Sequence record: OZ035795.1
DNA length: 64,000 nucleotides
Reading direction: 5' to 3' (one strand)
Origin: Krischvirus LF73P4
Every line of letters starts with the position of its first letter. Within the stretch, counting starts at the first letter, position 1. Below are positions 56,793 to 63,912 of the stretch, piece after piece. Made by a program: the position numbers and the translations under genes. The notes below the pieces were generated by a model, which had not been told where the DNA came from, made no database searches, and worked only from the letters and a program-made list of their open reading frames with translations.

Positions 56793-56850
56793 CGAAACAA
56801 ATTTTCTATTATTCTAAAGATCTTTCTTCGTTTTGGTTATGTTTTAACCA
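56793..56850. repeat. intergenic repeat, copy C
   Basis: ccgaaacaaattttctattattctaaagatctttcttcgttttggttat; lies between the gene 35 terminator and gene 3. Confidence 0.6.
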
Positions 56851-56856
56851 ACTGTA

Positions 56857-56897: not shown

Positions 56898-58037
56898 TTA
56901 ATCAACATCGAACTCTTTAAAGTTGTTGGATGTGATATGTTTATTGTCTCTAGGTAATTTAAGAAGACTCATAACAGGGTTATCGAAATTGCCGTTATCC
57001 TGAATGTGAGTTGTTCTAATACCGTTAACACCAAATGAAGTAGGACCAGTAGTTTTGACGACTCCACTGATCGGCGTTATTAGTATGTTTCTAATTTTAA
57101 CAATACCTTCATTTGAGTTGGTTGGATATCTGATACAACCAGTGGTAACACTATCAACTCCTTCCGGTACGGTATAGACGGCTTCAAACTTTTCCCATTG
57201 ATCTTTCTGGCTGGCATTATAACGAACGCCAGTTTGATATTGTCCATCAGTGAAGTAGTTGTGATAGAAACGCGCTGTTACGTTGGCTGCGGCTGCGGCA
57301 CTATCACGGAACAATTCAAAGGATATTGATAGTTTGTCACCTGCCTTTATGTTAAAATCTTCAAGTGGTGCGCTGATCTCATCATGAGGCCATTGTATTA
57401 GCTCGAAATGTTCGGCATCTTCGCTAACATATTCAACCGGATAATCTAAAAATCGTTGTGGTGTTCCTGTTATTGCAAGATCGTCTATAGTATCATAAAC
57501 TTTCTCGATCTGTATAGACGAATCTTGACCTTCCCCGTTCGTTGCTTGCATCCCTTCGCACACAATTTTGCCCATTTTAGTAGAATAAATTGCTGCATAG
57601 GATATACGAGGCATTTGCTGTAGCAAAATGTGATTCGGGAATGATACAGATCCCATCTTAGAGAATACAACATCACTTATCGGATCTGCAAACAATTCTC
57701 CATGCGTTGCCATCGCAATGATATAGTCACCTTTCAGCAAAGAGAGATAATCACGCATTGCCAAAACAGCACCGCGACCATAGAATACCTTTTCTTCGTG
57801 TAGTTGTCCAGTTGGAGTAAGAACTTTAAAATTTAGGCCATTTTCATAGCCAGTGCCAACTATCTCCACTCCATTAAATCTAATCCTTGCTGGTTTGGAA
57901 GAATCCGCATTAGATCCGCGCACTTCCAGCTTATACATCACAGAGTTGTTTTCTGAAATGCTTGTAAATGTCGCGGAGTCTTCGTCGAAATGCGCAAACT
58001 TAATTCCAGTATTGCGTAATTCTATCTCTTGTGTCAT
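56898..58037 (-). CDS. 35: long tail fibre hinge protein gp35
   Basis: 379 aa; C-terminal FGVNGIR as in T4 gp35; follows gene 34. Confidence 0.7.
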   Translation of the reverse strand: MTQEIELRNTGIKFAHFDEDSATFTSISENNSVMYKLEVRGSNADSSKPARIRFNGVEIVGTGYENGLNFKVLTPTGQLHEEKVFYGRGAVLAMRDYLSLLKGDYIIAMATHGELFADPISDVVFSKMGSVSFPNHILLQQMPRISYAAIYSTKMGKIVCEGMQATNGEGQDSSIQIEKVYDTIDDLAITGTPQRFLDYPVEYVSEDAEHFELIQWPHDEISAPLEDFNIKAGDKLSISFELFRDSAAAAANVTARFYHNYFTDGQYQTGVRYNASQKDQWEKFEAVYTVPEGVDSVTTGCIRYPTNSNEGIVKIRNILITPISGVVKTTGPTSFGVNGIRTTHIQDNGNFDNPVMSLLKLPRDNKHITSNNFKEFDVD

Positions 58038-61840: not shown

Positions 61841-61848
61841 TATTTATA
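61841..61848 (-). promoter_or_regulatory. T4-type late promoter TATAAATA
   Basis: Plus-strand TATTTATA (TATAAATA on minus) upstream of gene 34. Confidence 0.6.
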
Positions 61849-61886: not shown

Positions 61887-62072
61887 ATGGTTAAAGTTGA
61901 TTTGTCAGACGGTGCAAAATGGGTAGTTGACCGAATCCCTGATAAGGATTACAATTATTTTCGCGCAGAACTAAACAATGCAATTCTGCGAGTTATGGAG
62001 AAATACGGGTATGATCGTGAAGTATCTAGCTCGTTTGATGAGTCTGTTGTTGTGAGAGTGGAGAGAACTTAA
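61887..62072 (+). CDS. small hypothetical protein
   Basis: 61 aa; AAGAGGA RBS; immediately upstream of rnh. Confidence 0.45.
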   Translation: MVKVDLSDGAKWVVDRIPDKDYNYFRAELNNAILRVMEKYGYDREVSSSFDESVVVRVERT

Positions 62073-62074
62073 TT

Positions 62075-63022
62075 ATGACGTATAACCCGTTTACAAAAAC
62101 TACCGCTACACTTAATGATTTCTTTGATGATCCAGAAGATAAACTGCCGGAAGGTGTGCATTTGATTGATATGTCGCAGCTTATGATTGCTACTATCTCG
62201 CATACCTTTAAACCGGAAGATCCTATTAATGAAGGCATGATCCGTCATCTTATTCTTGACACCATGCGTTATAATATGACAAAATTCAAAGATCAATACC
62301 CAATCACGGTACTTGCTTTTGATTCAAGCAAAGGTTACTGGCGACGTGATATCGCACCTTACTATAAACGCAACCGTAAGGAAAAACGAGACGCAGATCC
62401 GCGTGATTGGGAGATGATCTTTGCTGCGATCAATAAGATCACCGAAGAGTTTAAAGAGAACATGCCTTATCACGTTATTAAGGTTGACAAAGTTGAAGCA
62501 GATGATATAATCGCTGTGTTAACTAAAAAGTTTTCTGTAGAAGGTCGTAAGGTGCTAATCAACTCCGGCGATGGTGACTACACACAGTTGCACAAATACA
62601 AAAATGTGAAACAGTGGGCGCCAGTACAGAAAGCATGGAAGAAATGCAAATATGGTAGCCCTTACAAAGACCTTATGGTAAAATGTGTTAAGGGTGACGC
62701 AAAAGACGGTGTGGCTTCTGTCAAGTGTCGTAGTGATTTCATTATCTCTCGACTGGAAGGGGAACGAGCTAAACCAGTTCCAACCAAATGGTTGGAGCAA
62801 ATTTTCGATGCCGATGATCCAAAGTCTTTGATGACAGAGGAAGAAGCACGACGATTTGACGAAAACCGCGAACTTATTGATTTCGATTACATCCCAGATG
62901 ATATTCAGAATCAGATTCTGGAGTCATGGGAAAAATCTAAACCAGCACCACGCGGTAAAATTTATAACTATTTTGTAACAAATGCGTTAGTTAAAATGTT
63001 GCAGAAAATTAGTGAGTTCTAA
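62075..63022 (+). CDS. rnh: RNase H (5'-3' exonuclease / flap endonuclease)
   Basis: Collinear with recalled T4 RNase H (GYWRRD, MPY..K.EADD, SSDGDFTQLHKY, VLIDFDYIPD, PRGKIY.YFV). Confidence 0.93.
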   Translation: MTYNPFTKTTATLNDFFDDPEDKLPEGVHLIDMSQLMIATISHTFKPEDPINEGMIRHLILDTMRYNMTKFKDQYPITVLAFDSSKGYWRRDIAPYYKRNRKEKRDADPRDWEMIFAAINKITEEFKENMPYHVIKVDKVEADDIIAVLTKKFSVEGRKVLINSGDGDYTQLHKYKNVKQWAPVQKAWKKCKYGSPYKDLMVKCVKGDAKDGVASVKCRSDFIISRLEGERAKPVPTKWLEQIFDADDPKSLMTEEEARRFDENRELIDFDYIPDDIQNQILESWEKSKPAPRGKIYNYFVTNALVKMLQKISEF

Positions 63023-63032
63023 GGGTTGACAT

Positions 63033-63632
63033 ATGAAAGAACTTGAATTAAAATACTATGCACACTCACAAATTGGCGTCGAAACCATCTGTGATTTGTG
63101 GGTGGCAATGTATGACGGATACAATCTCTTAGACCGAGATAACATTCTAAAACACGAATTTTATTATGATACCGAAGATCATGCGCTACGTCAAAAAGGA
63201 ATTTATGCACGACTTGACTGTCGAAAATCAGAGATCATGGTCAAAATGGGTGATAATGAATCTGGACTATTCAACCGCGAGGAAATGACATTTTCAAATT
63301 GGGATGAGTTTGTCCATTTTATTGATAGTATAGGGGTAAACTCAGACTATATCACTACAACAATGCAAGTAATGACATATCGCAAGTCATTGACTATAGA
63401 TATGGGTTGTGGTATAGTGGAAATGTGCAAAGACACTTTCTATTATGGCAAAGTAGGCGAAGGATTGGGCGACACTGCTCATTATGAACTTGAGTTCGAG
63501 TTAAAATCAGGTGATGAAAAAGCACTTGACATTATCCGAGAAATGATGCTAGAATATGTGGGTGACGATTTACGTCCTAGCGAAATCTCAAAAGCTGAAC
63601 GTGGTTTTCAATTAATGACGAAAGAGGGTTAA
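63033..63632 (+). CDS. CYTH-domain protein (triphosphate tunnel metalloenzyme-like)
   Basis: N-terminal E-x-E-x-K (KELELKY) and C-terminal ELEFELK; about 200 aa. Confidence 0.5.
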   Translation: MKELELKYYAHSQIGVETICDLWVAMYDGYNLLDRDNILKHEFYYDTEDHALRQKGIYARLDCRKSEIMVKMGDNESGLFNREEMTFSNWDEFVHFIDSIGVNSDYITTTMQVMTYRKSLTIDMGCGIVEMCKDTFYYGKVGEGLGDTAHYELEFELKSGDEKALDIIREMMLEYVGDDLRPSEISKAERGFQLMTKEG

Positions 63633-63636
63633 TATT

Positions 63637-63912
63637 ATGACTGAACAGAAAAAAGAAAAAGTAGTATTTGACGAAAATGTACACGGAAATACCCTGGCAC
63701 AACTGATTAAAGAAGCCAGCGATCAGAAAACCATTCAAGAAGCATACGGCGATAAGATCAAAGAGATCAAACAGCGTGCTAAAGAAGAATTAGGCGTAGA
63801 CGGTAAAATGTGGGGCATTCTGTTTAAACTGTATCACCAGCAACAGCGCGAAACCTTCGAAGCAGAACGCGATGAAGCGGTAGAACTCTATGATCGGGTG
63901 TTCAATGCTTAA
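63637..63912 (+). CDS. small protein at the T4 dsbA position
   Basis: 91 aa between rnh and gene 33; identity not verified. Confidence 0.4.
   Translation: MTEQKKEKVVFDENVHGNTLAQLIKEASDQKTIQEAYGDKIKEIKQRAKEELGVDGKMWGILFKLYHQQQRETFEAERDEAVELYDRVFNA

Follow-up and report, generated by a model that had tools for sequence, protein, structure and literature searches.

The rnh and dsbA genes of T4-like phages lie in a conserved block of replication and late transcription genes. In the window, the 64,000-nucleotide stretch of Krischvirus LF73P4 DNA that was analyzed here, the two genes are separated by an additional open reading frame (63033..63632, plus strand) that starts with ATG and specifies a protein of 199 amino acids. 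The locus raises the questions of what type of protein is produced, which chemistry it might perform, and why the gene resides at this position. The original prediction proposed that the product belongs to the CYTH family and that the gene is an accessory insertion which is absent from T4.

A CYTH gene between rnh and dsbA

The location between rnh and dsbA was corroborated by profile matches of both neighbors. The upstream gene (62075..63022, +), which terminates 10 nt before the CYTH gene, is rnh for the T4-type RNase H/5'-3' exonuclease (PF09293, E-value 3e-39; PF02739, 9e-18), and the downstream gene (63637..63912, +), which follows after a gap of 4 nt, is dsbA for the dsDNA-binding protein of late transcription (PF11126, E-value 5e-22). 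The sequence AAGGGT at 63021..63026 (+), 7-12 nt 5' of the ATG, was read as a putative ribosome-binding site, and a ribosome-binding site is annotated at the equivalent position in the record of phage Ec_Makalu_001. As the gaps are only 4-10 nt, the CYTH gene probably is co-expressed with the neighboring replication and late transcription genes in the string rnh-dsbA-33-59-32.

When compared with the phage collection, the 2.2 kb surrounding the gene matched all 58 Krischvirus (RB49/Phi1-like) records with 90-99.8% identity, and vB-Eco-KMB43 (99.8%) and FL04 (99.6%) were the best matches. Each of the 58 records encodes the CYTH gene, the ortholog of RB49ORF244c, at the same place, and these orthologs share the position and 82-99% amino acid identity with the window protein. 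In T4 itself (NC_000866), only 8 bp separate rnh from dsbA. The junction is equally tight and devoid of an insert in Proteus phage PM2 (Bragavirus), NC-G (Dhakavirus), Klebsiella phage Metamorpho (Jiaodavirus) and Citrobacter phage Moon (Moonvirus). Thus, the absence of the gene from T4 and its accessory nature within an otherwise conserved block, both part of the original prediction, hold for T4 and extend to four other genera of the Straboviridae.

When 1.84 billion representative proteins were searched exhaustively with a profile, this recovered only three representatives with E-values <1e-30 and six with E-values <1e-10, and a pattern scan of IMG/VR yielded at least three close orthologs among the matches listed. 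The phage-type representatives P0041, P0043, P0044 and P0045 all are encoded directly upstream of dsbA-33, and are preceded by rnh wherever the contig extends far enough. The profile matches that rank next are archaeal and bacterial CYTH genes of the ordinary type with cellular surroundings. As the phage-type matches share the rnh/dsbA-33 site and the other matches are cellular, the CYTH gene is an insertion confined to Krischvirus and a small number of more distantly related phages.

Further features were noted in the vicinity. An ORF of 61 amino acids (61887..62072, +) between gp34 and rnh matched phrog_3594, whose function label is 'unknown', and produced no match in Pfam. This ORF is found in Krischvirus (RB49ORF246c) and is missing from T4, PM2, NC-G, Metamorpho and Moon in which the gap between the starts of gene 34 and rnh is only ~40-110 bp. 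A T4-type late promoter motif, TATAAATA, closely precedes gene 34 on the minus strand (61841-61848). It is located in the intergenic region from which gene 34 and the plus-strand string of the 61-residue ORF and rnh diverge. Sixteen sigma70-like promoter matches were observed in the region compared to 7.1 ± 2.5 expected. Three strong predicted sites fall within coding sequence: a perfect TTGACA-16-TATAAT match with an extended -10 element inside rnh (62484-62511, +), an 11/12 match that overlaps the CYTH start codon (63026-63054, +), and a further 11/12 match that precedes dsbA by ~80 nt and is located in the conserved 3' part of the CYTH gene (63526-63555, +).

A separate irregularity was apparent at a distance from the CYTH gene. 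A stretch of ~109 bp (56743-56851) lies between a gene 3-like ORF (56125..56715, -) and gp35 (56898..58037, -). To its left the window matches the Krischvirus region of dNMP-kinase, gp3, 57A and dmd, and to its right the window matches the gp35-gp34-rnh-CYTH-dsbA region. The two halves are ~80-85 kb apart in the reference genomes inspected, which include JSE, ECD7 and FL04, and their relative orientation is opposite in JSE and FL04. The 109 bp are found at both reference loci. The joined halves were seen in none of the 58 matching records, which were the only matches among 50,697 in the collection, and the window lacks gp36, gp37 and gp38. The window has the appearance of an inversion of ~85 kb, or of a mis-joined assembly, through an inverted repeat.

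Family assignment and predicted fold

The CYTH membership that had been proposed from the sequence was supported by a match to the Pfam CYTH profile (PF01928) with 26.9 bits and an E-value of 4.9e-6, which is only 3.7 bits above the curated cut-off of 23.2 bits. The match spans residues 27-191 and positions 22-178 of the 179 in the profile. The protein had no match in NCBIfam, and was assigned among PHROGs to phrog_14893 (E-value 5.5e-132) which is labelled 'unknown function'. The AlphaFold2 model of the protein has a mean pLDDT of 89.5 and comprises eight long strands and helices in the order of CYTH proteins. The predicted fold is an eight-stranded antiparallel β-barrel tunnel with a C-terminal plug helix, the arrangement by which CYTH proteins are recognized. 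The layout was unchanged in the model (pLDDT 88.7) of P0037, a protein of the Skers type which is the most divergent Krischvirus allele.

When the window model was compared with the PDB by Foldseek, YgiF of E. coli was the top match (E-value 2e-11, TM 0.74); Mediator Med18/Med20 also are among the structural matches. A profile constructed from 20 family members and compared with PDB sequences likewise had YgiF (5a60/5a61) as its sole match (E-value 0.004), with profile positions 3-195 aligned to residues 6-201 of the YgiF chain such that the tunnel domain is spanned from end to end. Viral models matched only the orthologs of the protein, a few CYTH proteins of uncultured phages, and giant-virus mRNA triphosphatases. 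Overall the gene product is likely to be a stand-alone triphosphate-tunnel metalloenzyme that consists of the CYTH domain only, and that, among known proteins, is most closely related to the tunnel domain at the N-terminus of YgiF.

A CYTH protein had been identified in RB49-like phages before. In the GenBank record of RB49, RB49ORF244c carries the annotation 'similar to P45267, P30871, HI1598, ygiF', and the ORF was listed with a CYTH Pfam match (E-value 0.0026) by Nolan et al., 2006 (PMC1524935). Recent phage records name the gene 'hypothetical protein', 'adenylate cyclase' or 'inorganic triphosphatase'. Literature searches uncovered no functional study of a phage CYTH protein of this kind, and no biochemical or genetic data for any member.

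Residues of the predicted active site

Residue equivalences were established with a MAFFT alignment of ~150 sequences that included the phage proteins, YgiF and 147 representatives of cellular CYTH proteins. The ExExK signature predicted near the start is present as E-L-E-L-K at residues 3-7 in strand β1 (63039..63053, +). The motif is invariant in the family: E3, E5 and K7 correspond to E4, E6 and K8 of YgiF, in columns that are conserved in 142-144 of the 147 cellular representatives. The ExExE strand with which the protein was proposed to end also is present, as E152-L-E154-F-E156 in strand β8 (63486..63500, +) which aligns with E158, E160 and E162 of YgiF; however, it is the last strand of the tunnel and not the end of the protein, as 43 residues follow that include the plug helix. 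The plug-helix segment (63588..63623, +), located in a helix of residues 187-197 in the AlphaFold2 model, contains K187 and R190-G191. The corresponding columns have Lys in 145/147 and Arg in 127/147 of the cellular representatives.

The sequence Y58-A-R60-L-D62 in strand β3 (63204..63218, +) places R60 opposite the catalytic Arg-56 of YgiF, in a column that is Arg in 144 of 147 cellular representatives. The gapped register produced by HMMER, in which Y58 is opposite Arg-56 and which would imply a dead enzyme, was rejected. The R60 register is preferred because of the ungapped YYDT/YYET count, the MAFFT alignment, and the pairing of the β3/β4 hairpin in the AlphaFold2 model. Additional aligned pairs are K71, R82, E84, R117 and D134 of the phage protein with K69, R81, E83, R126 and D143 of YgiF, respectively. 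The positions equivalent to E4/E6/K8, R56, K69, R81, E83, R126, D143 and E158/E160/E162 of YgiF are invariant over all of the phage allele classes. In YgiF, metal 1 is bound by E160 and metal 2 by E4, E6 and E162, and R56 is an essential residue (PMC4641920).

The basic patch is retained at R60, K71, R82, R117, K187 and R190, but the second Arg of the RxR motif, which contacts phosphate and is Arg in 142 of 147 cellular representatives, is replaced by D62. The tunnel would possess one positive charge fewer which could lower or change activity. The replacement is compatible with catalysis as mutation of the equivalent second Arg (Arg-54) in AtTTM3 did not abolish activity (PMC4641920). Y58 occupies a column that is Ala, Ser, Gly or Thr in the cellular proteins, and corresponds to the position of Trp-53 in ThTPase which stacks the thiazole ring (PMC8233210). 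D62 and Y58, along with M69 (for Thr), F136 (for Gly) and H150 (for Ile), constitute the clade-specific changes at tunnel-facing positions compared to cellular relatives.

A variable core within a conserved gene

The CYTH gene is not uniformly conserved among Krischvirus phages. Sliding identity, divergence boundaries, dS values and identity matrices delimited a variable allele cassette at 63063..63480 (+), about codons 10-149, that occurs in at least five deeply diverged classes within near-identical phage backbones. Divergence from the window begins at 63063 for Skers or 63086 for RB49, and ends at 63480-63482 for both. The diverged stretch falls between the DNA encoding ExExK and that encoding ExExE. 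Across six loci with a Krischvirus backbone, nucleotide identity is 94-98% in rnh, 93-99% in dsbA, and 94-99% in the last 153 nt of the CYTH gene. In the core, taken as about 63060-63479, identity is 97% between the window and Makalu_001 which belong to one class, and 96% between RB49 and G2494 which belong to another, compared to 81-83% between these two classes. The Skers type and the P0041 type each are only 55-59% identical to everything else.

Synonymous divergence followed the same pattern. In the core, dS reached 0.42 in the comparison with RB49 and was saturated (>2) in those with Skers and P0041, compared to 0.07-0.20 in the flanks. As core dS far exceeds flank dS, the core consists of old alleles that were imported by recombination and not of sequences that changed recently in place. 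Amino acid identity of the core between classes is 39-60%, as low as that against P0043 (35-44%) which derives from a phage whose backbone is only ~76% identical. The rnh gene of the window is nearest to that of RB49 (98%), yet its core is nearest to that of Makalu_001 (97%) whose rnh is only 94% identical. Thus, allele class does not follow the flanks. The central 140 codons behave as a cassette that phages exchange through homologous recombination, in which the crossovers fall within the coding sequences of the two conserved catalytic motifs. The final 150 nt of the gene have dS values of 0.07-0.19 which equal those of the flanks. This stretch therefore represents backbone, and a special constraint on it was dismissed.

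The positions that are invariant in the core are concentrated in the tunnel. When the orientation of residues was deduced from the DSSP string, by the parity of strands and the pairing of hairpins, and not from coordinates, 20/34 tunnel-facing strand positions were invariant compared to 0/37 outward-facing positions, 2/34 in helices and 4/35 in loops. Pairwise dN/dS outside the tunnel was 0.3-0.45, and positive selection was rejected as no pairwise signal >1 was evident. A diversity-generating retroelement or other hypermutation also was considered as the origin of the core. The window includes no second copy of the core that might act as a template, the substitutions are not specific to adenine (25 of 67 are from A), and saturation was seen at synonymous sites, which led to rejection of this explanation. 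Apart from the cassette, in which a conserved tunnel is combined with an exterior that is replaced freely, the gene has no unexpected feature.

Two other observations concern individual phages. The 3' part of rnh (~62850-62940) is 75-83% identical to Skers compared to 92-100% in the remainder of rnh, and looks like a second, minor mosaic patch. In Escherichia phage vB_EcoM_G2494 (MK327935; locus L014, 1201-1796), the CYTH ortholog has a deletion of 1 nt at about codon 59, adjoining the codon for the catalytic Arg, and the gene is annotated as two ORFs. As the gene is split by this deletion, either G2494 is a natural knock-out in a viable isolate and the gene may be dispensable in the laboratory, or the deletion is a sequencing error.

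Proposed chemistry and biological role

The conserved residues suggest that the phage CYTH protein is likely an active phosphohydrolase by which a triphosphate compound loses its terminal phosphate. In the mechanism deduced from these residues, the triphosphate would be bound in the basic half of the eight-stranded tunnel by K7, R60, K71, R82, R117, K187 and R190. Two Mg2+ or Mn2+ ions would be coordinated, one at site 1 by E154 and the other at site 2 by E3, E5 and E156, and a metal-activated water would cleave the terminal phosphate, so that the outcome is hydrolysis rather than cyclization. As D62, Y58, M69, F136 and H150 are clade-specific residues in the tunnel, the specificity may differ from that of YgiF for free PPPi and possibly be directed toward an organic, nucleotide-like triphosphate, a suggestion that is made with low confidence.

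One alternative to an active enzyme is a non-catalytic protein that keeps the CYTH fold, for example as a binding module or a decoy. Loss of the second Arg of RxR fits with this idea, and non-enzymatic proteins with this fold are known, including Med18/Med20 of Mediator. However, the metal ligands and the catalytic Arg all are invariant over alleles with only ~40% core identity. As the catalytic set has been kept despite this divergence, a non-catalytic role is hard to sustain and scarcely credible. Several GenBank records instead name the product an adenylate cyclase, which would imply a class IV (CyaB-type) enzyme that makes cAMP to reprogram the host. The signatures of this class are HFxxxxExExK, replacement of the second Glu of the β8 ExE by Ala, and replacement of the first Arg of RxR by a small residue (PMC8233210). 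In the phage protein ExExK begins at residue 3, leaving no room for HFxxxxExExK, and no HF precedes the motif; the second Glu (E156) is not Ala; and the first Arg (R60) is kept. These three published criteria argue against the label, and cAMP synthesis accordingly merits next to no credence. Many CYTH proteins were historically mis-named as cyclases (PMC3440374). A third activity, that of an RNA 5'-triphosphatase, would strip the γ-phosphate from 5'-ppp RNA, such as pppRNA primers made by primase or transcripts, alongside the neighboring RNase H; this activity is highly unlikely. Neither by structure nor by sequence were Cet1, Pct1 or the mimivirus TPase the closest relatives.

If the protein is a phosphohydrolase, its role may lie in conflict with the host. 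As an enzyme of counter-defense or host takeover, the tunnel would hydrolyze a triphosphate-bearing host signal, alarmone or defense product, and the exterior would diversify under recognition by a host factor, either a sensor or an inhibitor. This possibility is tenable but unlikely. It accords with the accessory and lineage-specific nature of a gene whose surrounding block is fixed, with the circulation of ancient allele classes (39-60% core amino acid identity) in backbones that are 93-99% identical, with an exterior that is variable around an invariant tunnel, and with tunnel changes relative to YgiF that hint at another substrate. Conversely, a PADLOC search gave no match, literature searches found no report of a CYTH counter-defense protein, and dN/dS values outside the tunnel are 0.3-0.45 and not >1. 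Moreover, T4-like phages commonly contain mosaic accessory genes, and mosaicism alone does not imply conflict. A more specific proposal, which is a long shot, is that the protein destroys a triphosphate-bearing molecule other than free PPPi, such as a nucleotide-type immune signal, an alarmone or a modified NTP, and that frequency-dependent selection renders the exterior polymorphic. If correct, this would account for the persistence of allele classes whose age matches the divergence of phage genera, and for their shuffling among near-identical Krischvirus backbones with no change in the tunnel lining.

Overall, a conserved tunnel with a replaceable exterior fits with pressure from a host factor, but an ordinary mosaic accessory gene could also look like this, and involvement in host conflict is doubtful. 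If host pressure does operate, a triphosphate-tunnel enzyme would participate in phage-host conflict, a role that was not found in the literature searches. The analysis also corrects a spreading mis-annotation as 'adenylate cyclase'. As a soluble protein of 199 amino acids, the likely phosphohydrolase is a concrete and cheap target for biochemistry in which the catalytic mutants are clear and D62R and Y58A would serve as specificity mutants.

Comparison with characterized systems

The same gene at the same position in RB49 is RB49ORF244c (PHROG 14893), from which the window gene does not differ in any essential respect; the core of the window gene is a Phi1-type and not an RB49-type allele. 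CyaB of Aeromonas and Yersinia possesses the CYTH fold and is of similar size, and its name is used in some phage records. The mammalian 25-kDa thiamine triphosphatase has the motif W/Y-x-R-x-R, whereas the phage protein, which is ~14% identical, has Y-x-R-x-D; the ThTPase-like aromatic residue at Y58 is lost in more distant phage relatives in which it is Val (P0044) or Ile (P0045). YgiF of E. coli is an inorganic triphosphatase of 433 amino acids with CYTH-CHAD organization, in comparison with 199 amino acids and 21-22% identity for the phage protein. The CHAD domain of YgiF comprises residues 221-433 (PMC4641920), whereas the phage protein stops after the plug helix and has no CHAD match. 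Within the tunnel, YgiF has Gly, Thr, Gly and Ile where the phage protein has Y58, M69, F136 and H150, and retains the second Arg of RxR which is Asp (D62) in the phage protein.
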